From a virus: a DNA stretch of 64,000 nt. Shown one piece after another: positions 35,044 to 62,492 of this stretch; within the stretch, counting starts at the first letter, position 1, and every line of letters begins with the position of its first letter. The notes under the pieces were generated by a model, which saw only the letters and a list, made by a program, of their open reading frames with translations, did not search any database and was not told where the DNA came from. Location: IMG/VR virus record IMGVR_UViG_3300009159_000032; one strand, written 5' to 3'. The position numbers and the translations under genes are program-made.

Positions 35044-38000
35044 ATGCTGTTAAATCAATTATTTTCTCCTAAAAAATTATTCGAGGGCGGCAACTTAGCC
35101 AGTCACAAAGCTGACGGACAACCTATGCCAGGATGGCAGGGGATTCCTGGACAACATCAAGCACAAGAACTAGATTTAAACGTACACAACCGTACAGAAG
35201 TAGTAGCTGTACTATCTGATTTATTACACGGTATTAATGATGCATTTGCACAACAATTTAAAGAACCGCTTTGGCATGAAAATTCTGTAAAGGCTCAAAA
35301 GTTCTTAAGTGGTAGTACTATGCGATTCTTTGATAAGAAAATTTCAGACGAAGAATTTGTACGTGTCAAACCTACAGTAGGTGATATTGATACACAGGCG
35401 CCCGATAAACACGAAGGAACAATCAAACAATTCCTTACAGGATTAATTGGTAAGAAAGTAGGCGATGCTAAATTTATTGGATTTAGTGCTGGTAACAATC
35501 AATACACTAGTATGTGGGAAGTTTTACTAAAGGATCTTCCAGTTAAATTACAGATCGACTTTGAATACGGAGCACACGATCCAGAAACTGGATTACCCAC
35601 TCCGTGGCAAGAATACAGTCATAGCAGTTCTTGGGAAGATTTATCAGCAGGTATCAAAGGTGTATTTCACAAATACATCGATCGCGCCTTGCCATACGCT
35701 TCTACTGTTAGCACTAAGTATGTTGCTCGTGTATTAAAGAAAAGTACAAAAATCAGTGATGAACCTGTAACAGATTCAGATTACAGTTTTGCTGTCAGTG
35801 GTCAAGGCGGTGGTGGTGTAAGTAGAAAGTATGTTCCTTATAATGATCCAGCTACTGGTGCTCCTATGGAAAGAGACGGCATACCAGTTATGCAGTTATT
35901 AGATCCAGCAAACAGACAATACATTCAAAATCTTGGACAACAATTTGAAATTTTCTTTGGTCGTAAACCCAAAGGTAATGATCAGCAACTTAAAAATAGT
36001 TTTGTGGGCACTGTAGAACTAGCCAACAAATATCTAGACGACCAACAACGTACAGAATTATTCAACAGATTTGTATCTATATGTTTCGAACCTGGTAGTC
36101 AAATGATTACCAAAGGCGACCCAGCTAGAGATCGCAATATTAAAATGGCTGCTATTGATTACATGATTCAAAACATGAAACTTGCTAATCCTCAGGGCAT
36201 GAGAAAGCAGGCTATTAAAACAGCCATGGACTATGAGCAGGCCTTTACTTCAAAGCAGGCAGGTAAGGGCTTGAACGAAGCAGAAGTTAAGGCACAGTTT
36301 CGTAAAAACATGCCTCACCTTAAGGATCTAAAGCCCATTGATTTTTTAGATTTGTTAGATGAATTGCATCAAGGCAACGGACAATTTAAATTAAAGAATA
36401 TTCCATTAAATGTCAAAGTAGATGGCTTTGGTGGCCGCTTTGGTAAGAACTCAGACGGCAAGCCATTTATGGCCACAAGTAGAACAGAGCCGCGTTATCA
36501 AGCAGGCTTTGTTGACTATCATCAAAAGAAAGGCACAACTGATCCCGAAATACTAGGTCGTGCTCAACTTTTTGACGATTTGTTTGCAGAAATGATGAGT
36601 GCTGTACAACTTGTTGACAGCAAACTAGGTCCTGATTTTTTAATTAACAAACAAGTAACCTGCGAAGTTTTATATCTGCCATTTGCTACAGAAACTCCAG
36701 AAGGCAGGTTAAAATTTGTAGGTATACACTATGACAAACTTCCACAGGGTGTTCAATTAGCACTAGTTCCGTTCCGCGTAACAGATGCAACCACAGGCGA
36801 AGACCTTCCAGAGTCAAATAAAATAGTTAAAGAATTAACCAGCGTAGGTCGTCAAGGCAGTGTAATGTTTATTGACAACAGTCTAACACAAAACGAAGAA
36901 TTAGATGTTACTGAAATTATTAATGTGTTAGATAATATTGAAGAATTAAAACAGATTGTGTCGGACACTGCTGGTAAAAGAGATCGTGCTAGTTTAGATC
37001 TTAGACGTCAAGTTGAAGAAAAATTACAACCAGTTAAAGTAGAACTTGAAAAAGCAATTATTAACGATCCTAACATCATTGGTAAAGATTTATTGGGCAA
37101 AGACTACGAAGGTATTGTTATCAATAGTCGCCTTGGTCCTATTAAAATTACCAGTCAAGAACAACGTGATGTTATTAGTGCTAAAAATGCAGCTAAAGTA
37201 AGTGCAAGAACAGAACAGCCACGTGCAAATTCTAATAAAACAGCAGTAGTAGCAATAGGATCTTTTATTGGTCATAAAGGGCACGAAGAACTTTGGGACT
37301 ATACTGTTAAGAAAGCAGAACAAGTTGGCGGTGATCCTTATCTGTTTATCGGTAATGCAGAAGGCAAAGACGATCCTATTCCTCCTTCAGTTAAAGTACA
37401 GACATGGCATAAACTATATCCAGAATATGCTAAGAATATCAGCACAGTACAAGAAGGCGGACAGCTAATACAAAAGATCAAACACGAATTAATTAATCCA
37501 CTTCCAGGTAAACCTCCACGCTATGATAACATTATTATCATGGTTGGCGAAGATAGAGCAGGTATTAACATGCCTAATGCTTTAATGAAAGCTGTGAACA
37601 AATTCCAAGGATATGAACATGTTAAGGTAAGCCTTGATGTTACTCCGCGTGGCACTGGAATTAGCGGAACTGCGTTACGTAATAGTCTAAAAAATGATCC
37701 TCCAGAAAAAGCATTGGCTACATGGTCTAATGCATTTGATGTAAACAAACTTGGTGTTGATTGGATCAAACACTTAATGGATATAACGAGAAAAGGTATG
37801 GGCATACAACAAACACAACCACAACAACCTGCATCGCAGCCCACACCAATGGCTGAGATGAGACTGTTCAACGCTCTTGTAGCACCAAAACATAGTATGC
37901 AAGAAGGCTTAGGTAAACACGTTGCTAGTGCTGCATTAGCAGGTGCTATGGCATTCGGTGGTGCAGGAGCACATGCCCAGAGTTCAGGAGAAGATTTTTT

Positions 38001-39117
38001 ACCCGATATTGTTGCTCACGTTACTTTTAAAGTTAACGGCAAAGAAATATCAAAAGATATTAATCTAGGAACAACATATAAATCTCCCGGTGAAGCGTCA
38101 GCTGCACTTGAAAAATTCTTAAAATCTAAAGGCATCAAGTATTTTGAATATAGTCTTGAGCGTGTAAAATCAAAAGATGACGACTATATAGATAAAACTC
38201 CGGCATCAGATACAAGTACATCGGGTTCCGTAGACAGTCGTCCTTACAGTTCAACTGGAAATTCACCAAGTAACTATATGGCTAAAGAAAATGTAGAAGA
38301 AGCTAAGTCTGCTAGTAGACGTTGGCATGATGCATTACAGCGTGAAAAAGAACGCCGTGAACGCAATGAACGTGCAGGTCAAGAACTTCTAAATCCTAAA
38401 AAGAAAGAAGAACCTAAAGAAAAAGATGTGGCGGAAGGCTCCTTAGAAGCAAATACTCCAAATCCTGTTGTAGTAGTACAAGACTTAAAAGGTAAGATTT
38501 TAGATAAAGTAAATCTATCAATGGCTGTACAAAAATATAAATTAGGCAACCCGCAAGATATAAAAAATCAATTAGCACATCAAAACTATACTCAAATTGG
38601 AAATTATATTATAGTGTCACCTATGAGCGGACAGCCGCAAGATGCAACAACGCAAGGTGTGGCGGAAGGTGACAGTGGTGCAAAATATAAAGTAAGAAGT
38701 ATTGGGCACGATGCCAAAGGTGATTATTATATCAGCCCAAGCACAGGAAAAAAAGTTTATAAAAAGGGTGCCAAAGTCGGTGATCACGAAAATCCCAAAA
38801 CGGGCGAGCACAAAGGTGTAGCGGAAGGTGATAGTCCAGCAATGGCACATACTACCAAGAGCTTGGAAAATCCTCCTAAGGTTATGCAACACCGTGCCAA
38901 ACGTGATCAAGAACGTGATAAGCAACTACAATATAGAAATATTTCTAAACGAGATGAAGATCTAGACGAAAAAATCAAAGGCGCAGACGGCAAAGCCTGC
39001 TGGCCCAACTATCGTTACAACGGTACAGAGAACGGCTCAGACAAGTGTGTTAAAATTGGCGAAGCATGGGAATTAGAAATGTCTAATGCTATTAGTAAAC
39101 TATTTGAAAACCGATGA
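35044..39117 (+). CDS. multidomain polyprotein: Pol-beta-like nucleotidyltransferase, RNA/DNA-ligase-like domain, HIGH nucleotidyltransferase, and C-terminal mini-modules
   Basis: LSGS...VGDIDT...QIDFE; NVKVDG...YEGIVI...PIKI; GSFIGHKGH...ISGTALR; then modules separated by xVAEG. Confidence 0.75.
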   Translation: MLLNQLFSPKKLFEGGNLASHKADGQPMPGWQGIPGQHQAQELDLNVHNRTEVVAVLSDLLHGINDAFAQQFKEPLWHENSVKAQKFLSGSTMRFFDKKISDEEFVRVKPTVGDIDTQAPDKHEGTIKQFLTGLIGKKVGDAKFIGFSAGNNQYTSMWEVLLKDLPVKLQIDFEYGAHDPETGLPTPWQEYSHSSSWEDLSAGIKGVFHKYIDRALPYASTVSTKYVARVLKKSTKISDEPVTDSDYSFAVSGQGGGGVSRKYVPYNDPATGAPMERDGIPVMQLLDPANRQYIQNLGQQFEIFFGRKPKGNDQQLKNSFVGTVELANKYLDDQQRTELFNRFVSICFEPGSQMITKGDPARDRNIKMAAIDYMIQNMKLANPQGMRKQAIKTAMDYEQAFTSKQAGKGLNEAEVKAQFRKNMPHLKDLKPIDFLDLLDELHQGNGQFKLKNIPLNVKVDGFGGRFGKNSDGKPFMATSRTEPRYQAGFVDYHQKKGTTDPEILGRAQLFDDLFAEMMSAVQLVDSKLGPDFLINKQVTCEVLYLPFATETPEGRLKFVGIHYDKLPQGVQLALVPFRVTDATTGEDLPESNKIVKELTSVGRQGSVMFIDNSLTQNEELDVTEIINVLDNIEELKQIVSDTAGKRDRASLDLRRQVEEKLQPVKVELEKAIINDPNIIGKDLLGKDYEGIVINSRLGPIKITSQEQRDVISAKNAAKVSARTEQPRANSNKTAVVAIGSFIGHKGHEELWDYTVKKAEQVGGDPYLFIGNAEGKDDPIPPSVKVQTWHKLYPEYAKNISTVQEGGQLIQKIKHELINPLPGKPPRYDNIIIMVGEDRAGINMPNALMKAVNKFQGYEHVKVSLDVTPRGTGISGTALRNSLKNDPPEKALATWSNAFDVNKLGVDWIKHLMDITRKGMGIQQTQPQQPASQPTPMAEMRLFNALVAPKHSMQEGLGKHVASAALAGAMAFGGAGAHAQSSGEDFLPDIVAHVTFKVNGKEISKDINLGTTYKSPGEASAALEKFLKSKGIKYFEYSLERVKSKDDDYIDKTPASDTSTSGSVDSRPYSSTGNSPSNYMAKENVEEAKSASRRWHDALQREKERRERNERAGQELLNPKKKEEPKEKDVAEGSLEANTPNPVVVVQDLKGKILDKVNLSMAVQKYKLGNPQDIKNQLAHQNYTQIGNYIIVSPMSGQPQDATTQGVAEGDSGAKYKVRSIGHDAKGDYYISPSTGKKVYKKGAKVGDHENPKTGEHKGVAEGDSPAMAHTTKSLENPPKVMQHRAKRDQERDKQLQYRNISKRDEDLDEKIKGADGKACWPNYRYNGTENGSDKCVKIGEAWELEMSNAISKLFENR

Positions 39118-39383
39118 AACAATATAGAATATCAGGATTCCCAATAGATGCATCAACTGATCCAGATTGTGCATTGTCTCCTGACGATCCTATACATAAA
39201 CTAAAGGCCAGTAATTGGCTAGGTGAATTAGGCGCCGAAGCTAGGATGGCAGAATACAATAACAGCAGTCGTACGCCTACATGGAATGATCCACGTAGCG
39301 AAAATGCACGTATTATGCGTGAACAAGGTATTAAACCAGGTACTCCTGCTTGGTTCGAGCTTTGGTTTGGAAAAAATAAATAA
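39114..39383 (+). CDS. hypothetical protein
   Basis: 89 aa, ATGA-coupled, ending in IKPGTPAWFELWF. Confidence 0.75.
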   Translation: MKQYRISGFPIDASTDPDCALSPDDPIHKLKASNWLGELGAEARMAEYNNSSRTPTWNDPRSENARIMREQGIKPGTPAWFELWFGKNK

Positions 39384-39389
39384 CATATT

Positions 39390-39764
39390 ATGAGAATATC
39401 TGAATTACTCACCGAAGTTAAGTCTGGCAAAATCAGCAAGAGAGCACAACAACCCAGTCGTGGCATTAACACCTATGGCGATGTTGAACACGCAAACAGC
39501 GACTATGTAGGCTTTAAGCTAGGGCAGGCTATGGCAATGAGTGACGGTTCGGGTGCTCCGATAAACATTGACCCTAAGAGCTGGTACGGTAAAAAGAAAA
39601 CTGTGCATCCTTATTCAGAAATAGAACAACAGATGTTTAAAGATGCGGCTAAGGTAGTCGGAGCTAGTTATAAAGATATAAACAAAGGCGATATGAAAAG
39701 CAAAGAGCTAGACAGTACTCACAATATTAGTCCTGTGCCTGATAGAAAGAAGCTAGCAAAATGA
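39390..39764 (+). CDS. putative internal head protein (MRISELLTE leader)
   Basis: Leader resembles the T4 CTS MKTYQEFIAE. Confidence 0.65.
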   Translation: MRISELLTEVKSGKISKRAQQPSRGINTYGDVEHANSDYVGFKLGQAMAMSDGSGAPINIDPKSWYGKKKTVHPYSEIEQQMFKDAAKVVGASYKDINKGDMKSKELDSTHNISPVPDRKKLAK

Positions 39765-39925
39765 AAATACAAGAACTCTTAGAAACAGCAACAGGTATGG
39801 GCACCAGTGCTATTGCAACCAGCATGCCTGCAAAGAAACCTAAGAAGGGACAGAAATTAAATCTGCTTGGGACTCCTGTATCTGAGACAGATAAAGAAGT
39901 TAAGATAATAAAGAGACAACCATGA
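39761..39925 (+). CDS. 54-aa putative internal head peptide missing from the ORF track (MKIQELLETATGMGTSAIATSMPAKKPKK...)
   Basis: ATGA overlaps at both ends. Same leader as its neighbours. Confidence 0.75.
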   Translation: MKIQELLETATGMGTSAIATSMPAKKPKKGQKLNLLGTPVSETDKEVKIIKRQP

Positions 39926-40773
39926 ATCATCCAGACCACGAAATAGAAATGGCACGTTCCGAATTATATTCAATAGCCAAATATGCTATTGCACTTCACG
40001 AGATGTTAGAAAATGTCAGTGAACTAGACGGCATGGAAGGTTGGCAACAGAGTAAAATCACTCGTGCAGCTGACTACATGGAAAGTGTTTATCAAAGCCT
40101 TACACATGAAATGAAATTTGGAGAGTCTGCTCCCAAAGGTTGGGAAGGTACCGTTAAGGCCATGAAGAAACACAAGGAAATTGATAATCCTTGGGCACTA
40201 GCACACTATATGAAAAACAAAGGCTACAAGAGTCACAAGAAAGAAGAAGGTGTGGCAGAAGCAGGATATGGTCGTAACAAAGATTACGATCCCGGATTTG
40301 CCAGTCCACACGCACCAAAGTTAACACCTATTGGTGGTCCAAAACAAGATGACGAATACGTAAACGGTAATCCAGTAAACAATATTGAAGTATCTATTAA
40401 CGGTCGTCCTTGGAAGATATTTCCAGGCAAGGGACCAGATGGTAGTCGGGCATTTTTCCAACAAAAACAAGATGTTGACGAAATGTGTAAACGCAAGACT
40501 GCCGCAACTGGTAAGAAATGGAGTTGGGGTGTTACCGGTGAGCCTGCTACCAATGAAAGTACTGTGCAGGAACACAAGAAAGGTGTACGTGCTATGAAGC
40601 ATACCACTAAGCCAAGAAACCCAGTAATGGCTGGAGACAAACCAGGTAAAGCAACTGTTACTCACAAAAACAAAAAGAAAGATCAACAACGCGGTGTAGA
40701 AAAACACAAAGGCAAAGAACCTGCTTATGAATCGCGCCTGTGGAACGCACTGTCACAACACTTAGAAAAATAA
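39922..40773 (+). CDS. modular basic polyprotein-like protein
   Basis: Modules separated by FGE/, GVAE/, TNE/ and VQE/. Contains one copy of the DNA repeat. Confidence 0.7.
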   Translation: MNHPDHEIEMARSELYSIAKYAIALHEMLENVSELDGMEGWQQSKITRAADYMESVYQSLTHEMKFGESAPKGWEGTVKAMKKHKEIDNPWALAHYMKNKGYKSHKKEEGVAEAGYGRNKDYDPGFASPHAPKLTPIGGPKQDDEYVNGNPVNNIEVSINGRPWKIFPGKGPDGSRAFFQQKQDVDEMCKRKTAATGKKWSWGVTGEPATNESTVQEHKKGVRAMKHTTKPRNPVMAGDKPGKATVTHKNKKKDQQRGVEKHKGKEPAYESRLWNALSQHLEK

Positions 40774-42915: not shown

Positions 42916-43593
42916 ATGACCGAAGAATTGCACACTCAACCAATATATCGAAAACATGAGATACCTCTTGTTAATTATCTAATGACTTTTAAAGATGCCC
43001 TAACAGAAGAATTTTTAAAATTTCACGATAATTGGTTTAATCAAGATGAAGATGTAAAAGGCCTTATACTAACTAGACCAGCAGGTCGAAACGTTGACAA
43101 TTATTTAAGCGACCCTAATGCATGGAAATCTTCGTGGATCAGATACGAATATACTCCCGGAGGTAAAGTTCTTAATAATGATAATACTATTTGGACTTTT
43201 CCAACAGCACATAAAATAATGAAACAGTATGAAGGGCAACTTGGAATTGTTATGTATAGTGTGTTAGAAGCAAACAGTGTTATCAGTAGGCATACTGGTC
43301 CAGAAAATCGTACTGGCGAATATTTAAGAATTCATTTGCCTCTTATTGTGCCAGACGGTGATATATTTTTAGAAGTGAACGGGGAAGAAATAGATTGGAG
43401 CGAACCTTTTGGTTTTAATAATCAGTATATTCACAGTGCTCATAATTATAGTCCTAAAAGAAGATTGGTATTTTTGATCGATATTAAAAGAAGTTTTCTA
43501 GGATTACCTCGAGGAGTTCATTTTCGTGCAAAAGATCATATAGCATATCTAGCATCAGTTCAACCTTTTAAAAGAAAAGGTATTACAATATGA
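42916..43593 (+). CDS. aspartyl/asparaginyl beta-hydroxylase-family oxygenase
   Basis: ISRHTG...LRIHLPLIVP...FNNQYIHSAHN...RLVFLID. Confidence 0.8.
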   Translation: MTEELHTQPIYRKHEIPLVNYLMTFKDALTEEFLKFHDNWFNQDEDVKGLILTRPAGRNVDNYLSDPNAWKSSWIRYEYTPGGKVLNNDNTIWTFPTAHKIMKQYEGQLGIVMYSVLEANSVISRHTGPENRTGEYLRIHLPLIVPDGDIFLEVNGEEIDWSEPFGFNNQYIHSAHNYSPKRRLVFLIDIKRSFLGLPRGVHFRAKDHIAYLASVQPFKRKGITI

Positions 43594-44710: not shown

Positions 44711-44983
44711 ATGGGAAAAGCATTTGGAGCCCCAGAGCAGGCCAAAATTAAACAAATCGTTGCAGAAGGCATGACTGTAATGCAGGAAATTCAAGACCTT
44801 ACTGAAGGATTGAATGACACAATCAAAGCAGTAGCAGAAGAATTAGAAGTTAAACCTAGTGTGATTAAAAAAGCAATCCGCATTGCACAAAAAGATCAAT
44901 GGGATCAAGTTTGGAGAGAATTTGACGACCTAGAAACTATTGTTGACATCAGTGGACATAGTTTCCGTAAAAAAGATGAATGA
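44711..44983 (+). CDS. putative dsDNA-binding protein (T4 DsbA/GapR-like)
   Basis: EIQDLTEGLNDTIKAVAEELEVKPSVIKKAIRIA helical pattern, upstream of the polymerase. Confidence 0.55.
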   Translation: MGKAFGAPEQAKIKQIVAEGMTVMQEIQDLTEGLNDTIKAVAEELEVKPSVIKKAIRIAQKDQWDQVWREFDDLETIVDISGHSFRKKDE

Positions 44984-54079: not shown

Positions 54080-54859
54080 ATGGTATATCAAAATGCGTAC
54101 GAAAGTCACGACGAGGAACCTAGTGACAAAAAAGAATCAATTTTAGATATTGATGAAAAAGGTTACGAAGTAGGTTACTTAGGTAATGCTATTCGTGCAA
54201 AAATGAAACGTGATAAAAAACGTTTCTGGGCAGGCGACAACGTAAGTGAATATCTTATGCCTGGCGATAAAGAAATGCTAATTGACGATGCTACAGAAGC
54301 ATTTGAAAGTGTATTAGATGCACTGTTGATTGATCGTGAGAATGATCCTAACAGCAAGGGTACAGCACGTAGGCTTGCTAAAATGTATTTTAACGAGATA
54401 ATGGCAGGAAGATATGAACCAGCACCAGACGCAACAGCATTTCCAAATGATTCAGCAGACAGATACGAAGGTATGTTGGTTGTGCGTAGCGAACTACGTA
54501 GTATGTGCAGTCATCATCATCAACCTGTTAGTGGAGTGGCATACATTGGAATTATTGCGGCAGAAAAACTTATCGGCTTGTCCAAGTATACACGCATTGC
54601 CCAATGGTGTGCTCGTCGAGGAACATTACAGGAAGAATTGTGTATTGACATAACCAACAAGATTATGGCTGCAACTGGTAGCAAGGACGTAGGTGTGTAC
54701 ATTCAAGCAGTGCATGGATGCTGTGAGAATCGTGGCATTATGGCACATAGTAGTTTGACTCAGACTACTGTACTTAGAGGTGCATTTAAAGATGACCCTA
54801 ACACTAAAAAAGAATTCATGGACAATGTTAAACTACAGCAAGAATTTGCGCCTCGATGA
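54080..54859 (+). CDS. folE: GTP cyclohydrolase I
   Basis: SMCSHHHQP, GLSKYTR, QEEL, HGCCENRG, TTVLRGAF. Confidence 0.95.
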   Translation: MVYQNAYESHDEEPSDKKESILDIDEKGYEVGYLGNAIRAKMKRDKKRFWAGDNVSEYLMPGDKEMLIDDATEAFESVLDALLIDRENDPNSKGTARRLAKMYFNEIMAGRYEPAPDATAFPNDSADRYEGMLVVRSELRSMCSHHHQPVSGVAYIGIIAAEKLIGLSKYTRIAQWCARRGTLQEELCIDITNKIMAATGSKDVGVYIQAVHGCCENRGIMAHSSLTQTTVLRGAFKDDPNTKKEFMDNVKLQQEFAPR

Positions 54860-55718: not shown

Positions 55719-55935
55719 AACAGTTTACACAGAAGTGGAAGTAGATGTAGATATCGGTGATTTTGATACTGATGATCTATTAGAAGAATTAGAACAACGT
55801 GGTTCATTACCACCAGAAGGCGATACCAATGCCAAAGAACTAGTTGAACAGATGTACTACTTACACCGCCAAGGACAAGACTGTACACATCTGTTAGATC
55901 GTCTGTTCTATTCTGTATTAGGAAAAATAGTATGA
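55708..55935 (+). CDS. hypothetical acidic protein
   Basis: Coupled ORF containing VEVDVDIGDFDTDDLLEELE. Confidence 0.65.
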   Translation: MVYKTVYTEVEVDVDIGDFDTDDLLEELEQRGSLPPEGDTNAKELVEQMYYLHRQGQDCTHLLDRLFYSVLGKIV

Positions 55936-56780
55936 GCAAAATTAAAATAGCAGAATTATTTTACAGTATTCAAGGTGAAGGAAGGTACATGGGTGTACCT
56001 TCCGTGTTCTTACGCACGTTTGGTTGCAATTTTAAATGTCAAGGTTTCGGCATGCCTAGGGGAGAACTAAGCAATGAAGCAGATGAGTTAGGTAGTCTTG
56101 CTCATATGTTTAACAAGTATGAAGAGCTACCGCTAGTTAGCACAGGCTGTGATAGCTATGCTAGTTGGCATCCAGACTTTAAAGAACTTAGTCCAATGCT
56201 TACCAGCGAAGCAATCGCAGATCGTATTATGGAAATTCTCCCACACGGCGAATGGCAAGATGAACATCTTGTTATTACAGGTGGTGAGCCATTACTAGGG
56301 TGGCAACGTGCTTATCCAGAGTTGTTAGAGCATCCTAAGATGGCGGGCTTAAAAGAGATCACATTTGAAACAAACGGTACTCAAAAACTAACTGAAGAAT
56401 TTAAACATTACCTAGGTGAGTGGACTGCTGAACATTGGGATAGAGAAATTACATTCTCAGTAAGTGCTAAACTGCCAGCCAGTGGTGAGAAGTGGGAAGA
56501 AGCTATTTGTCCGGAAGTAGTGTGCGAGTATGAAAAACGTGGCACTGCGTATCTTAAATTAGTTGTATCTACGGCAGATGATATTTTAGATGCAGAACGT
56601 GCTGTTAAACAATTTAAAGATGCAGGATTTAAAGGACACATTTATCTGATGCCTGTCGGTGGTGTGGAAAGTGTTTATACGCTAAATGCAAAGAATGTAG
56701 CATTAGCCGCTATGAATCGTGGATGGCGATACAGTGATAGACTACAGGTGCCGTTGTTTAAGAATGAGTGGGGAACCTAA
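55932..56780 (+). CDS. queE: 7-carboxy-7-deazaguanine synthase (radical SAM)
   Basis: ELFYSIQGEG...SVFLRTFGCNFKC...CD, VITGGEPLL, ETNGT, LMPVGG, SDRLQ. Confidence 0.92.
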   Translation: MSKIKIAELFYSIQGEGRYMGVPSVFLRTFGCNFKCQGFGMPRGELSNEADELGSLAHMFNKYEELPLVSTGCDSYASWHPDFKELSPMLTSEAIADRIMEILPHGEWQDEHLVITGGEPLLGWQRAYPELLEHPKMAGLKEITFETNGTQKLTEEFKHYLGEWTAEHWDREITFSVSAKLPASGEKWEEAICPEVVCEYEKRGTAYLKLVVSTADDILDAERAVKQFKDAGFKGHIYLMPVGGVESVYTLNAKNVALAAMNRGWRYSDRLQVPLFKNEWGT

Positions 56781-59629: not shown

Positions 59630-60008
59630 AATCACCAAGTATGTAATGACCCATTTGGGCTTGCCTATTGATGATAAAACTTTTAAACGAGCTACATTTG
59701 CTTGGTGGCAAAATCCAAGAAAAAAATCAAGTGGCGGATTTCGATTATCTGATAAAGGATATGAATTCCTAAAAAGAGCAGATATCAAAGACTACGAAAT
59801 TAAATTACCCAAAGACACAGAATTTACTAGTCAATTGATAATTTGGTTAGACAAGTTTATTGATTGCCCATTTTACATTACTAAAAAATCTATTTTTGTC
59901 TTTGGAGAAAGAATGGCTGTGCAATTAATCCTATTTTCTGGAGACCTTAAAAAATACGGTTGGAGTAGGGCAAGAAGTGTTGCAAAATCACAACTTGACG
60001 AGATCTAA
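59613..60008 (+). CDS. hypothetical protein
   Basis: 131 aa overlapping ORF. Confidence 0.75.
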   Translation: MNQKDEITKYVMTHLGLPIDDKTFKRATFAWWQNPRKKSSGGFRLSDKGYEFLKRADIKDYEIKLPKDTEFTSQLIIWLDKFIDCPFYITKKSIFVFGERMAVQLILFSGDLKKYGWSRARSVAKSQLDEI

Positions 60009-60023
60009 GAAAGAGCATATAAT
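59995..60023 (+). promoter_or_regulatory. sigma70-type promoter
   Basis: TTGACG-17-TATAAT. Confidence 0.85.
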
Positions 60024-60075
60024 TTATGCATACGTTAAAAAACGTATCAAAATTCAACTCAACAAAGGTTTTAAA

Positions 60076-61158
60076 ATGGCAGAAAAAATCAGCGGTAACC
60101 GCACTGTTACTCCTAATGAAGCTAAAAAAAGCATTCGTAAATGTGTAAAAATTAAACGCCCTGTATTCTTGTGGGGGCCTCCAGGTATTGGCAAATCCGA
60201 TATTGTTAAACAAATTGGTGACGAACAAGATCGCGAAGTTATTGACGTTCGTTTGTCACTTTGGGAACCTACTGATATTAAAGGTATTCCATATTTTGAC
60301 TCAAATGCAAACACCATGACTTGGGCACCTCCTGCAGAATTGCCTACTGATCCAGAGTCTACTGCTATTCTGTTCCTAGATGAATTGAATTCTGCGGCTC
60401 CTGCTACACAGGCAGCGGCTTTCCAATTAGTGCTTAACCGTCGTGTTGGCACTTATGTACTACCAAAAGGTGTTAGTATTATTGCCGCCGGTAACCGTGA
60501 AACTGACAAGGGTGTTACTTATCGTATGCCTGCTCCGTTGGCTAATCGTTTCCTGCACTTGGAATTGCGTACCGACTTTGACGACTGGTTGATGTGGGCT
60601 ACTAAAAATAAATTGCATGAACAGGTTGTTGGTTACTGCTCTTTTGCCAAACAAGACTTGTACGACTTTGATCCAAAGAGTGCAAGCAAGGCATTTGCTA
60701 CTCCCCGTTCTTGGTCATTTGTTAGCGAGTTGTTAATAGATGATGACTTGGACGAAGGTACACTGACTGATTTGGTGTCAGGTGCTATTGGCGAAGGTTT
60801 GGCAGTTAAGTTTATGGCACACCGTAAAGTTGCTAAACAAATGCCCAAGCCTGAGGATATTTTGAGTGGTAAAATTGATAAAATTTCTATCAAAGAAATC
60901 TCAGCTATGTACTCTTTGACTACTTCTTTGAGCTACGAGCTTCAAGAAGCAGATCGTAAGAAAGCCAAAGATTGGGACAAAATGGCTGATAACTTCTTCA
61001 AATTCATGATGGATAATTTCCCAACTGAATTGGTTGTTATGGGTGCCAAGGTTGCACTTACAAACTATCAACTGCCATTTGATTCCAGCAAAATGGATCA
61101 CTTTGACAAATTCCATGACAAGTACGGCAAGTACATTATCACTGCAATGGAACAGTAA
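60076..61158 (+). CDS. MoxR-like AAA+ ATPase
   Basis: GPPGIGKS, LFLDELNSA, AAGNR, PLANRF. Start MAEKIS lies downstream of the promoter. Confidence 0.9.
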   Translation: MAEKISGNRTVTPNEAKKSIRKCVKIKRPVFLWGPPGIGKSDIVKQIGDEQDREVIDVRLSLWEPTDIKGIPYFDSNANTMTWAPPAELPTDPESTAILFLDELNSAAPATQAAAFQLVLNRRVGTYVLPKGVSIIAAGNRETDKGVTYRMPAPLANRFLHLELRTDFDDWLMWATKNKLHEQVVGYCSFAKQDLYDFDPKSASKAFATPRSWSFVSELLIDDDLDEGTLTDLVSGAIGEGLAVKFMAHRKVAKQMPKPEDILSGKIDKISIKEISAMYSLTTSLSYELQEADRKKAKDWDKMADNFFKFMMDNFPTELVVMGAKVALTNYQLPFDSSKMDHFDKFHDKYGKYIITAMEQ

Positions 61159-61162
61159 AATT

Positions 61163-61182
61163 GGCCCGCAAGGGCCTTTTTT
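61163..61182 (+). terminator. intrinsic terminator
   Basis: ggccc-GCAA-gggcc followed by T6. Confidence 0.85.
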
Positions 61183-61184
61183 AC

Positions 61185-61213
61185 TTGACTTTAGAGTATT
61201 TTGAATATATAAT
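61185..61213 (+). promoter_or_regulatory. sigma70-type promoter
   Basis: TTGACT-17-TATAAT immediately after the terminator. Confidence 0.85.
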
Positions 61214-61238
61214 AATACATCAACAGCAAAGGATTACT

Positions 61239-62492
61239 ATGACATCAGTAATGAAGACCGAAAAGGTTAAAAAAGCAGTTCCTACTAAAGAATACACTGC
61301 TTCAGAAAAATCCAAAATTTTAGATAAACTTATCACTGCCCGTGTAGGTTTATTGTTGCGTCATCCGTTTTTTGGCAATCTTGCTACACGTATGAAATTA
61401 ATTGATGCCAGTGATTGGTGTCCTACACTAGCCACAGACGGACGTAATTTTTATTACAATAACGATTTTGTTTACAAGTTAAAACCAAAAGAAGCAGAGT
61501 TTGGCTTTGCTCACGAAGTATTGCACAATGTATTTGATCACATGGGGCGTCGTGATCATCGAGATCCAGTTATTTCTAACATTTCCGCAGACTATGCCGC
61601 AAATCAAATTCTTAAAGATGAAGGTATTGGAGAAGTTCCAAGTTGGATTAAAATTTATCAAGACAACAAATATCGTGGCTGGAGTTACGAACAGATTTAT
61701 GAAGAGCTCGAATCCAAAGCAACTAAAATTGATTTAAGTACACTTGGAGAGTTACTCGACGAACATTTGGATGGTGAAGGTGACGACGGTGACGAGGATG
61801 AAAACGGCAACAAAAATGGTAGCGGTCGTCCAAAATTAACTGCTGAAGAAAAGAAAGCAATCAAAGACGAAATTAAAGAAGCTATGGTTGCGGCTGCTCA
61901 GGCTGCAGGTGCCGGGCGTGTACCGGCAGGTGTACAACGTCTAATCCAAACTTTTACTGAACCTAAAATGGATTGGCGTCAAATGTTGCGTATGAATATC
62001 CAAAGCATTATTAAAAGCAATTTTAGTTTTGCTCGTCCAAATCGCAAGTCACAGCACTGCGGTGCAATTTTGCCCGGTTTGATGAACGAAGAAACAATCG
62101 ATGTAGCAGTAGCTATTGATATGAGTGGCAGTATTTCGGACAAAATGGCCAATGACTTTATCAGTGAAGTCAAAGGTATTATGGACGAATATGTTGACTT
62201 TAAATTGGATCTATGGTGTTTTGATACAGCAGTGTATGGTTACCAACAATTCACAGGCGATAACGCTGACGAAATTATGGAATACAAATGCAAAGGAGGT
62301 GGTGGCACTGACTTTGATGTTAACTACGAGTTCATGAAAGAAAACGACATCAATCCAAAACGTTTCATTATGTTTACAGACGGCTATCCTTGCGGTAGCT
62401 GGGGTGACGAGGATTATTGCGAATCATTGTTCATTGTACACGGAAATGATAAGATCATTTCTCCATTCGGCCAGACTGCACATTATAAATAA
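61239..62492 (+). CDS. metallopeptidase-like (HExxH) + vWA domain protein (DUF2201-like)
   Basis: ATDG, AHEVLH, MIDAS motif IDMSGS, GGGTDF, FTDG. Start MTSVMK. Confidence 0.85.
   Translation: MTSVMKTEKVKKAVPTKEYTASEKSKILDKLITARVGLLLRHPFFGNLATRMKLIDASDWCPTLATDGRNFYYNNDFVYKLKPKEAEFGFAHEVLHNVFDHMGRRDHRDPVISNISADYAANQILKDEGIGEVPSWIKIYQDNKYRGWSYEQIYEELESKATKIDLSTLGELLDEHLDGEGDDGDEDENGNKNGSGRPKLTAEEKKAIKDEIKEAMVAAAQAAGAGRVPAGVQRLIQTFTEPKMDWRQMLRMNIQSIIKSNFSFARPNRKSQHCGAILPGLMNEETIDVAVAIDMSGSISDKMANDFISEVKGIMDEYVDFKLDLWCFDTAVYGYQQFTGDNADEIMEYKCKGGGGTDFDVNYEFMKENDINPKRFIMFTDGYPCGSWGDEDYCESLFIVHGNDKIISPFGQTAHYK
62484..62491 (+). promoter_or_regulatory. T4 late promoter consensus TATAAATA
   Basis: Exact consensus upstream of 62505. 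Confidence 0.6.

Follow-up and report, generated by a model that had tools for sequence, protein, structure and literature searches.

A codon-locked 17-base word at module junctions of phage polyproteins may serve both as an exchange point and as a head-protease site

Introduction

Why would a phage with an A+T-rich genome write the same short peptide several times, in separate places of its genes, with nearly the same G+C-rich bases? The question is raised by two polyprotein genes, P0001 and P0002, of a large uncultured T4-like phage. They lie in a stretch of 64,000 nt from the IMG/VR virus record IMGVR_UViG_3300009159_000032, which we call the window and to which all coordinates refer. Four in-frame copies of a DNA word encoding (Q/K/E)(G/D)VAE(G/A) are found there, three in the C-terminal tail of P0001 and one in the neighbouring P0002 (Table 1). 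A preliminary description of this DNA had interpreted the repeat as the core of an integron-like array, in which peptide cassettes are added in frame and each is released by cleavage after VAE.

Methods

Codons were tallied at 61 unique junctions from loci that were chosen by protein similarity, and codon backgrounds were taken from ORFs of at least 200 aa of this phage group. The pairwise synonymous comparison of homologous junctions comprised only 19 pairs, all of them close.

Table 1. Positions of genes, junctions and modules in the window
Feature	Coordinates	Strand	Basis or remark
P0001, 1357-aa gene	35044..39117	+	ORF list and translation
P0001 leader, 14 residues, ends L-F-E before G-G	35044..35085	+	resembles T4 capsid-targeting sequence
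Decayed junction M Q E / G, before hydrophobic LGKHV... module	37897..37908	+	comparison with L001, L028
Decayed junction N V E E / A, before KSASRRW... module	38290..38301	+	comparison with L224
Junction copy 1, K D V A E / G	38422..38439	+	one G-to-A change from consensus
Module M1, 77 aa, residues 1132-1208	38437..38667	+	DNA homology blocks
Junction copy 2, Q G V A E / G	38653..38670	+	exact consensus
Module M2, 53 aa, residues 1209-1261	38668..38826	+	homology blocks start 38651-38665
Junction copy 3, K G V A E / G, GTA for Val	38812..38829	+	sequence
C-terminal module M3, 96 aa	38827..39114	+	Cys-Trp...Cys motif, conserved terminal helix
124-aa gene, leader-like N-terminus M R I S E L L T E	39390..39764	+	translation; gene call repeated on an independent contig
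54-aa leader ORF, M K I Q E L L E / T A T G...	39761..39925	+	gene call on L386
P0002, 283-aa gene, two modules joined by junction copy 4	39922..40773	+	ORF
Widely travelled 41-aa unit (...APKGWEGTV...KSHKKE)	40123..40245	+	DNA comparison
Junction copy 4, E G V A E / A, GCA for Ala	40246..40263	+	sequence
Control peptide V A E G in small conserved gene	44753..44773 (VAEG 44759-44770)	+	GTT GCA GAA GGC

Results

The polyproteins have a conserved core and a variable tail

P0001 consists of a conserved core (approximately residues 1-930) and a variable C-terminal polyprotein tail. Residues 39-383 match PHROG 19290 and residues 712-926 the cytidylyltransferase-like PHROG 3041, and no PDB sequence relative of P0001 was found. 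Its relatives retain residues 1 to ~930, followed by a tail that ranges from none to ~1000 aa. P0002, the start of which is overlapped by the stop of the 54-aa leader ORF, had no match in Pfam, PHROG or NCBIfam; the NCBIfam search gave no match for P0001 either. Among cultured phages we found no DNA match, and the tail modules had no protein match there. The protein matches of P0001 in cultured phages were restricted to the N-terminal core (hypothetical proteins of Campylobacter, Vibrio and Xanthomonas phages), and the N-terminal part of P0002 matched hypothetical proteins of Flavobacterium phages weakly (E = 5e-4). A literature search with the junction peptide string retrieved unrelated papers only.

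The junction is written with locked codons

The four near-identical copies that had been reported are all present, each on the plus strand and in the coding frame. When the window was searched with a 16-mer allowing at most three mismatches, these four matches were obtained, compared with a mean of 0.39 in dinucleotide shuffles, none of which (0/100) reached four. The consensus of the word is [C/A/G]AA GGT GTG GCG GAR G(G/C)N. Only copy 2 agrees with it perfectly; copies 1, 3 and 4 each carry a single G-to-A change within GGT GTG GCG. Viewed as DNA, the word provides 11-17 bases of G+C-rich identity against an A+T-rich background, and its frame never changes.

GTG and GCG had been described as G+C-rich choices for an A+T-rich genome, and they are minority codons: in this phage group they make up 12.6% of Val and 7.7% of Ala codons. 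At the junctions, Val was GTG in 53 of 61 cases, Ala was GCG in 55 and Gly was GGT in 58 (background 44%). Other invariant peptides of the same loci are written with ordinary codons. The same is true of the differently written VAEG that had been offered as a control: in 16 relatives its codons are mixed, Val being written GTT, GTA or GTG and Ala being written GCA, GCC or GCT. Among the junctions that have neither flank in common (n=50), GTG GCG occurred in 39, with ~0.5 expected (P ~1e-68). The pattern that the preliminary description had named as refuting its view, orthologues with random synonymous codons and modules that are invariant or vary at other positions, was not observed. These data support the earlier claim that selection acts on the DNA: across at least 50 junctions with neither flank in common, the junction motif is constrained as a nucleotide sequence.

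The reading frame is equally constant. All core matches (82/82) were in the G-V-A-E frame on the coding strand, including two on L001 for which our script gave an overlapping open frame instead. When viral contigs were scanned for the 17-base word, at least 160 sites were obtained, and among the matches listed 158 of 160 were in the QGVAE frame within long ORFs. In bacterial genomes, by contrast, matches were single, mostly in high-G+C genomes, and in mixed frames, which argues against a chance origin. The pooled junctions comprised 224 distinct left and 210 distinct right contexts, of which 25 left and 32 right contexts were paired with more than one partner.

Homology blocks end at the word

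DNA homology blocks between the window and its relatives begin and finish at the word. Every block that covers M1 has its left edge at copy 1; at copy 2 the M1 blocks end and those of M2 begin. M1 is 98.3% identical in DNA to L047, 94.6% to L049 and 92.7% to L045 and L046, where it is located inside unrelated proteins, while the other stretches that these loci have in common with the window are 64-79% identical. M2 is preceded in other loci by six different left-hand modules. Homology to L001 stops exactly at copy 3, after which a different module follows in L001; to the left of the equivalent of copy 4, L001 carries two other modules. The 41-aa unit upstream of copy 4 was found in ~80 loci within many different proteins (76-90% DNA identity), and here, too, homology stops at copy 4. 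Many homologue tails close with a C-terminal end similar to M3, irrespective of the intervening content.

The stretches between the repeats had been called unrelated modules. This holds between copies 1 and 2 (77 aa) and between copies 2 and 3 (53 aa), and M1 and M2 have no significant similarity to one another or to any of the other segments. It does not hold between copies 3 and 4, where the sequence comprises the last 96 codons of P0001, three small genes and the first 113 codons of P0002.

The modules are 90-98% DNA-identical to those on contigs whose core genes are merely 64-75% identical, which indicates recent lateral movement. Module order is permuted between close relatives, and module content differs exactly at the repeat, in line with the proposal that the repeat marks gain and loss. 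At some borders the word is not found on both partners; in L047, for example, it is missing where the 98%-identical copy of M1 ends on the right. Clean insertion pairs (X/Y versus X/M/Y) were not found among 265 junctions.

Most of this evidence comes from metagenome contigs, and a join at a common in-frame word always preserves the frame. Chimeric assembly at such a repeat, or a chance repeat, could therefore be suspected. We regard this as extremely improbable. The common identity (17-23 bases) does not exceed the smallest assembly k-mers, and M1 would need two chimeric joins within 250 bases, with identities of 92-98% rather than 100%. The exact P0001 protein is present on 3 contigs and the exact P0002 protein on 4, and identical junctions occur in different metagenomes (e.g. 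L025/L026/L057 or L045/L046). The codon lock, moreover, is independent of assembly.

Junctions decay

The LGKHV... module comes immediately after the consensus word in L001 and L028; at this place the window keeps only Glu and Gly. Similarly, the consensus word precedes the KSASRRW... module in L224, which is 93.5% DNA-identical to that of the window. Starts of homologous modules were preceded by the consensus in 50 cases, by a near-consensus in 21, by another sequence with Glu kept in 35 and by another sequence in 50. By our own tally, 21 of 27 in-frame single-base variants of the word were GC-to-AT transitions.

These figures bear on the idea that the word works in the mRNA, as a ribosome pause (through rare codons or the Shine-Dalgarno-like AAGGUG) or as an RNA processing or binding site, so that its silent positions are fixed and shuffling at the borders is a by-product. 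GTG and GCG are indeed rare in this phage group, AAGG and GGAAGG stretches lie inside the word, and the word is always on the sense strand in one frame. However, GTC is as rare as GTG and was never used (0/61), so that the sequence matters and codon rarity does not; pausing at rare codons was rejected on this ground. More than half of the homologous modules lack the word, and two decayed junctions are found in the window itself. No stable structure or G-quadruplex was predicted, and the lock persists when Ala follows the junction, which removes the fourth GG run and thus also speaks against a G-quadruplex. An explanation by phage tRNAs was dismissed, no tRNA gene being located within the 64-kb window. 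Finally, a function in RNA or translation leaves the 90-98% module identity against a 64-75% backbone unexplained, and we consider it distinctly improbable.

A Chi-like hotspot was also rejected: the 64-kb window has no more than 4 copies, each of them in frame and at a junction, and the word exceeds the length of Chi.

The junction peptide resembles prohead-protease sites

A T4-type capsid protein (Gp23) and a gp21-type (S77) protease were detected in 8 of 10 related large records, neither being present in the 64-kb window. An L-x-E/S site is found in the capsid protein of all five records examined for it. In T4, capsid-targeting leaders of 10-20 residues are removed by gp21, and proteases of this type cleave after Glu (PMC5694885, PMC9026906). 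Homologues of P0001 conserve the leader pattern L-x-E followed by GG. Leaders of the same kind as the 54-aa ORF are fused to the polyprotein in seven loci, and these fused leaders copy the residues that follow the cut site of the capsid protein. P0002 has no leader of its own. With the protease, the capsid sites and the targeting-like leaders taken together, cleavage after VAE, as it had been proposed, is plausible, and the junction is probably an x-x-Glu cutting site of the head protease.

The peptide could instead be a flexible linker between the domains of an uncut polyvalent protein, with its DNA identity serving or reflecting recombination and no protease involved. Gly and Ala are small residues typical of linkers, and packaging without processing occurs for some polyvalent proteins (PMC5512222). 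Furthermore, one 343-kb record (G007; CheckV 99% complete, 48% G+C compared with 39% in the word-bearing T4-like phage) has five copies of the word, and neither Gp23 nor a gp21-type protease was detectable in it, even with a profile search. Against a mere linker, Glu is the residue most often retained in decaying junctions. The arrangement of a hydrophobic P3, Glu at P1 and a small P1' is that of the capsid protein's site in the five relatives examined, it agrees with the published specificity of the protease family (PMC5694885), and leaders resembling targeting sequences are present. We therefore judge the linker-only reading rather unlikely.

No dedicated recombinase was detected

The core GGTGTGGCGGA (11-13 bases) might be the recognition or annealing site of a dedicated activity, such as a site-specific recombinase, a nicking or homing nuclease or an annealing protein, encoded by phage or host. 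In-frame cassettes would then be actively excised and inserted, possibly via small circles, as in a true protein-cassette integron. In more than 200 contexts the core is highly uniform in spite of its very small length, which recognition of a sequence explains more easily than homology alone. The third base of the Glu codon showed a weak trend to go with the right-hand module in our codon-variant linkage test, suggesting exchange points within the upstream core. The permuted module order of close relatives points in the same direction, as do the mini-circles that arise at PeSL repeats in T4-type phages (PMC2839356).

However, integrases, resolvases and reverse transcriptases were not found in five related large records, two of which are complete. 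PF00589 (tyrosine recombinase) matched none of these five (0/5) and all of 14 control genomes (14/14), and no integrase family was detected among ~40 window ORFs scanned. The word is non-palindromic with no partner structure in its variable flanks, no gene was seen to co-occur with it, junctions decay freely, and the word is missing at some borders. We consider dedicated machinery unlikely. If an activity at GGTGTGGCGGA did exist, sets of injected effectors would be rebuilt on ecological time scales and across phage lineages.

As a mechanism, the integron-like part of the preliminary description found no support. The locus resembles an integron in that exchangeable units are arrayed with a repeated site at the border of each. 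It differs in lacking IntI, attI and an attC hairpin, and its units are in-frame parts of proteins rather than promoterless genes. attC sites are hairpin-forming imperfect inverted repeats with a length of 57-141 bases. The word has 17 bases and is not palindromic, the flanks of different junctions are unrelated, and the predicted fold of the word with typical flanks amounts to only -1.6 to -4.4 kcal/mol.

Discussion

We think it reasonably probable that the word is a frame-preserving exchange junction of short homology, probably doubling as a head-protease site, in polyproteins that resemble the T4 internal proteins. Related phages have swapped modules at the linker, which therefore looks like an exchange point that keeps the frame. 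According to this model, whole modules would be exchanged, inserted or lost at the word, with the reading frame kept, between different phages or between different genes of one phage. Short-homology recombination, by annealing or strand invasion, is the most likely route, and it would be carried out in mixed infections by the general machinery with which the phage recombines and replicates its DNA; a RecA/UvsX homologue was found in 5 of 5 related large records searched. Fresh junctions would have the consensus, and unused ones would erode through GC-to-AT mutation. An identity of 11-17 bases is, however, short for classical homologous recombination.

At the protein level, an N-terminal targeting leader would carry the precursor into the prohead. 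Since the junction peptide (hydrophobic residue, any residue, Glu, then Gly or Ala) fits the specificity of gp21-type prohead proteases, the precursor would be cut there into small separate proteins. By analogy with the T4 internal proteins, the head would store these products, and they would probably enter the host together with the DNA.

If so, one coding sequence is kept for two readings, as a protease or linker peptide and as a DNA exchange point that preserves the frame. This would explain how large phages build and renew sets of small, probably injected proteins while their genes stay intact. The 17-base word is a simple handle for mining hundreds of autonomous phage modules, with exact borders, from metagenomes; these modules are candidate anti-defence or host-takeover factors. 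The system also makes it possible to ask directly whether selection for evolvability maintains short conserved junctions or whether these are mere footprints of recombination. Fusions meant to be packaged and released in T4-like phages could be designed after this natural model.

Among known systems, the promoter-early stem-loops (PeSLs) of T4-type phages (Arbiol et al. 2010, PMC2839356; Comeau et al. 2014, PMC4122927) belong to the same phage superfamily and are likewise short conserved DNA elements repeated at the borders of variable units. Recombination from copy to copy yields insertions, deletions and replacements between relatives, no dedicated recombinase is known, and excised circles between copies have been demonstrated there (PMC2839356, PMC4122927). 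PeSLs, however, are intergenic and regulatory, with a sigma-70-like promoter and a terminator stem-loop, and flank whole genes. The word comprises 17 frame-bound bases that also encode a probable protease site; it was inside coding sequence in every case and forms no stem-loop.

In the gp38 adhesins of T-even phages, short conserved intragenic motifs separate variable segments, and exchanges occur in or near these glycine-rich motifs (Trojet et al. 2011, PMC3157838). Those motifs have a fixed order and together build the structural core of a single folded domain (PMC3157838), whereas the modules joined by the word are unrelated and autonomous and vary freely in order and number, with silent positions of the word locked over hundreds of contexts.

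The T4 internal proteins IPI, IPII, IPIII and Alt (PMC9026906, PMC5694885) resemble the present system in their N-terminal leaders (8-17 residues), which end in hydrophobic-x-Glu. The leaders of P0001 and its homologues, the 54-aa ORF and the seven fused loci are of this kind, 8 of the 10 related large records have the protease and the capsid protein, and the predicted products would be similarly small (50-100 aa). In T4, each protein has its own gene and a single cut; here, several modules share a putative precursor with repeated internal candidate sites.

Polyvalent proteins (Iyer et al. 2017, PMC5512222) combine two to fifteen unrelated effector-type domains in one phage or plasmid polypeptide, for which proteolytic release and delivery with the DNA have been proposed, the processing being ascribed to built-in metallopeptidase domains (PMC5512222). 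The likeness lies in the strings of unrelated small domains, in genes placed among virion and late genes, and in the ParB-like, HD and nucleotidyltransferase-like domains of relatives. It does not extend to the junction, as that paper gives no conserved junction peptide or DNA word and the term 'linker' is absent from its text (PMC5512222). Most modules of our set match nothing and recognisable domains are few; those found in relatives were HD (63.7 bits), ParB_N (25.6 bits, just below the cut-off), DUF6321 and, weakly, ParBc_2. An HExxH-type segment was also spotted by eye among the relatives.

Junction copies in the window

The window carries four in-frame copies of the junction word, starting at 38422, 38653, 38812 and 40246, as the preliminary description had claimed. 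Shuffled sequences gave 0.39 matches to the word, and none of 100 shuffles had four. Only copy 2 is a perfect consensus; copies 1, 3 and 4 are each one G-to-A difference away from it, in all cases inside the GGT GTG GCG codons. The segments between copies (77 and 53 aa; modules M1 and M2) are unlike each other and all other segments. The internal control of the preliminary description, V-A-E-G at 44759, was correct and is written in common codons. Two decayed junctions were also found (listed below; ↓ marks the position after the Glu of a junction, leader or capsid site). Immediately after the first of them comes a hydrophobic segment (37906-38000), rich in Gly and Ala and resembling a signal peptide or transmembrane stretch, and its module sits behind a consensus junction in the related loci L001 and L028. 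Another module in relatives opens with a twin-arginine-like R-R-G-F-L-K-G segment.

Features of the window and, in the last two lines, of the 343-kb viral record G007
Feature	Position	Remark
Tail-fibre-like gene (2093 aa) and collagen-like tail-fibre genes		
Subtilase (Peptidase_S8), 527 aa	16900-18483	directly after the collagen-like tail-fibre genes
ClpA/ClpB-type double AAA+ ATPase, 756 aa	31208-33478	full-length; lies a few genes 5' of the polyprotein gene
P0001, 1357 aa	35044-39117	junctions in its C-terminal tail
Decayed junction M-Q-E↓G	37897	L001: consensus before the same module
Decayed junction N-V-E-E↓A	38290	L224: consensus at the matching site
Separate leader ORF, 54 aa	39761-39925	stop overlaps P0002 start; translationally coupled
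P0002, 283 aa	39922-40773	one junction copy
LysM + GH19 lysin, 428 aa	40740-42026	N-terminus: weak metalloprotease PHROG match
Asp/Asn beta-hydroxylase-like gene	42916-43593	
Family B DNA polymerase		
GTP cyclohydrolase I-like gene	54080-54859	
QueE-like radical SAM gene	55932-56780	
MoxR-like AAA ATPase, then DUF2201 metallopeptidase/VWA protein	59977-62492	
Locus L389	G007:C1:172000-183000	
Locus L390	G007:C1:161500-164500	

Silent codons are fixed at the junctions

We collected junctions from 132 related viral-contig loci, picked for encoding proteins similar to P0001 and P0002 and blind to the junction DNA, and took background codon use from ORFs of at least 200 aa in these protein-picked loci. 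At 61 unique G-V-A-E-(G/A) junctions, Val was encoded by GTG in 53 (background: 12.6% of Val), Ala by GCG in 55 (7.7% of Ala) and Gly by GGT in 58 (44% of Gly); use of the Glu codon was background-like (GAA 48, GAG 13). Among the 50 junctions without any shared flank, 39 had GTG GCG, where ~0.5 were expected (P~1e-68). Two control peptides from the same loci, an invariant 12-residue peptide in a travelling module (35 copies) and the peptide Q-I-V-A-E-G (16 copies), encoded in a small conserved gene, had ordinary codons, with Val mainly GTT and Ala mainly GCA. All 82 unique matches to the 11-base core (at most one mismatch) lay on the coding strand in the G-V-A-E frame, counting two in L001 for which the script gave an overlapping open frame instead. 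In agreement with the preliminary description, we conclude that the junction motif is constrained as DNA, beyond the peptide.

Several other accounts of the word found no support: a G-quadruplex or local RNA structure in the folding check, rare-codon pausing in the junction codon counts, tRNA supply in the window, which has no tRNA gene, and a Chi-like site in the distribution of the word in the window.

Decay of junctions

Single-base variants of the core were almost all in frame, and they included non-synonymous ones (such as G-V-V-E, G-V-G-E, G-V-E-E, G-M-A-E and G-L-A-E) that retained the other locked codons. By our own tally, 21 of the 27 listed in-frame single-base variants were GC-to-AT transitions. 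We then classified 156 starts of homologous modules from the protein-picked loci by the sequence preceding them: the consensus word in 50, a sequence one or two bases off consensus in 21, unrelated codons with Glu kept at P1 in 35 and other sequence in 50. Since decayed junctions precede homologous modules, the locked silent positions are dispensable for module or protein function. This dispensability, together with Glu being the most durable junction residue, makes it unlikely that the word has a strict role in RNA or translation at every junction. The decay pattern fits repeated renewal by copying, that is, recombination.

Modules are exchanged at the word and move laterally

In the closest relative, L001, the core protein is 93% identical and the homology blocks are permuted relative to the window. 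Several block edges lie at or a few bases from the word (L001 4661 and 4666; window 38829), and others 13-16 bases upstream of a word copy (window 38415 and 40237). The L001 orthologue of P0002 has two other, word-bounded units in place of one. Across all loci, DNA homology blocks of M1 extend from 38422/3 to 38651-38669 and those of M2 start at 38651-38665, and the homology of a 41-aa unit of P0002 stops at copy 4. Ends of protein HSPs showed ~2.6-fold enrichment at distances of up to 5 aa from a junction, with sharp peaks where the motif opens or closes the HSP. The preliminary description had proposed comparing related genomes for module gain or loss at the repeat, and module content indeed differs among relatives exactly at the word.

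The identity of shared modules was far above that of the backbone on the same contigs, which included the DNA polymerase gene (L045, L049, L224) or the ClpA-like gene (L088, L073). It follows that the presence of these modules in their current hosts is far more recent than the divergence of the hosts themselves. We conclude that modules have been exchanged at the word and laterally moved. Exact copies of P0001 on three contigs and of P0002 on four argue against assembly chimeras; the window arrangement is no one-off assembly product.

DNA identity of window modules and of other sequence shared with the same contigs
Module	Locus	Module identity	Other shared sequence
M1	L047	98.3%	other shared genes 73-74%
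M1	L045	92.7%	other shared genes 64-79%
M1	L049	94.6%	other shared genes 66-73%
38299-38437	L224	93.5%	long backbone matches ~71% (65-79% overall)
41-aa unit	L088, L073	~90%	backbone genes 66-75%

The 41-aa unit (...A-P-K-G-W-E-G-T-V...K-S-H-K-K-E; window 40123-40245) occurs in ~80 loci (L055-L132) at 76-90% DNA identity, in many unrelated proteins of 150-1060 aa. It has Glu on both borders, usually without the consensus word. P0001 contains a nucleotidyltransferase-like domain in its interior (residues 712-926); in L224, the same domain forms the N-terminus of a separate 509-aa ORF (minus strand, 1053-2579) with its own M-K-L-L-E-L-F-E leader and, after the enzyme domain, tail modules that also occur in the window. 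The enzyme core, too, is thus a movable unit.

Spread of the word

Scanning IMG/VR for the 17-base word gave at least 120 loci and at least 160 sites. Among the matches listed, 158 of 160 sites were in the Q-G-V-A-E frame, with a median open frame of 545 aa (22 aa in the other frames) and extremely diverse flanks. In bacterial genomes (596 Gb), matches were mostly single, came from high-G+C genomes and fell in various frames, as expected by chance. When all loci were pooled, we counted at least 265 junctions with at least 224 distinct left and 210 distinct right contexts; at least 25 left and 32 right contexts were paired with more than one partner, and M2 was preceded by six different modules.

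We searched ten large records (123-525 kb), five that carry P0001- or P0002-related sequences and five obtained through the DNA word. They contained 0-6 word copies each, clustered in one to a few genes. Eight of the ten encoded both a capsid protein of the T4 Gp23 type and a gp21-type prohead protease (S77). Record G007 (48% G+C; CheckV 99% complete) has five exact core copies in polyproteins that share modules with the window family (L389 and L390), and neither a T4-type capsid protein nor a gp21-type protease was detected in it, even with a seven-sequence profile. Either the head genes of G007 are very diverged or lie outside the record, or the word crosses phage lineages. Junction modules were absent from the cultured phages searched.

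Mechanism of exchange

Short-homology exchange at the word is the best-supported explanation of the junctions. The G+C-rich, frame-fixed word would provide a short-homology exchange point between co-infecting genomes, and also between genes of one genome; junctions would start out as consensus and decay wherever renewal stops. In the Glu codon, the third base tends to accompany the right-hand module, a weak trend hinting that exchanges may fall inside the upstream 11-13 bases of the word. General T4-type recombination machinery is present, with a RecA/UvsX homologue in all five large records tested. The weak point of the short-homology model is the short shared identity (11-17 bases), which leaves a low probability for a dedicated activity acting on the word. 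Tyrosine recombinases, serine recombinases and reverse transcriptases were not found in the same five large records, and control genomes were positive. With these defining parts missing from the five records, the integron analogy of the preliminary description fails; its DNA constraint and exchange at the motif stand.

Among the closest mechanistic precedents are two systems of the same phage superfamily, PeSL cassettes, in which intergenic repeats drive modular shuffling with mini-circles (PMC2839356), and gp38, whose conserved glycine-rich motifs are exchange sites (PMC3157838). The closest functional precedents include T4 internal proteins and 'polyvalent proteins'; the paper by Iyer et al. 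on the latter mentions no junction motif (PMC5512222). Our literature search for the junction peptide returned no paper with the peptide in a comparable context. We class the codon-locked junction as a new, in-frame form of recombination-linker system.

Leaders and a possible protease site

The prohead protease gp21 and its giant-phage homologues cleave after Glu at short x-x-E motifs, and T4 internal proteins have targeting leaders of 10-20 residues (PMC5694885, PMC9026906). V-A-E↓G agrees with the x-x-E pattern of gp21-type proteases, and from its sequence the junction is a plausible head-protease site. The capsid protein had an L-x-E↓S site in all five records examined, where T4 gp23 maturation predicts it. 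Seven polyprotein genes of other loci open with a leader that matches M-K-I-x-(D/E)-(I/L)-L-E↓S, and the residues past the leader Glu (up to a dozen) are nearly identical to the predicted new N-terminus of the capsid protein. By this resemblance, the polyprotein leaders look like mimics of the protease or assembly signal of the capsid protein. P0001 and its homologues have an N-terminal leader of 14-17 residues ending in L-x-E↓G-G. The leader form M-K-I-x-x-L-L-E, then S-A-T-A-G-A-T-S..., was seen in L008, L014, L027, L050, L074, L235 and L236, and in the window at 39761-39925. The subtilase of the window is a second protease candidate, with no kinship to gp21.

Other genes of the window

Judged from gene content, the window (38.9% G+C) reads as a portion of a large phage genome. 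The lysin and beta-hydroxylase-like genes are located just 3' of the polyprotein genes. The PHROGs label 'HNH endonuclease' for the DUF2201/VWA protein is without support from its Pfam domains. The GTP cyclohydrolase I-like and QueE-like genes suggest that the phage makes 7-deazaguanine derivatives, which probably serve in DNA modification.
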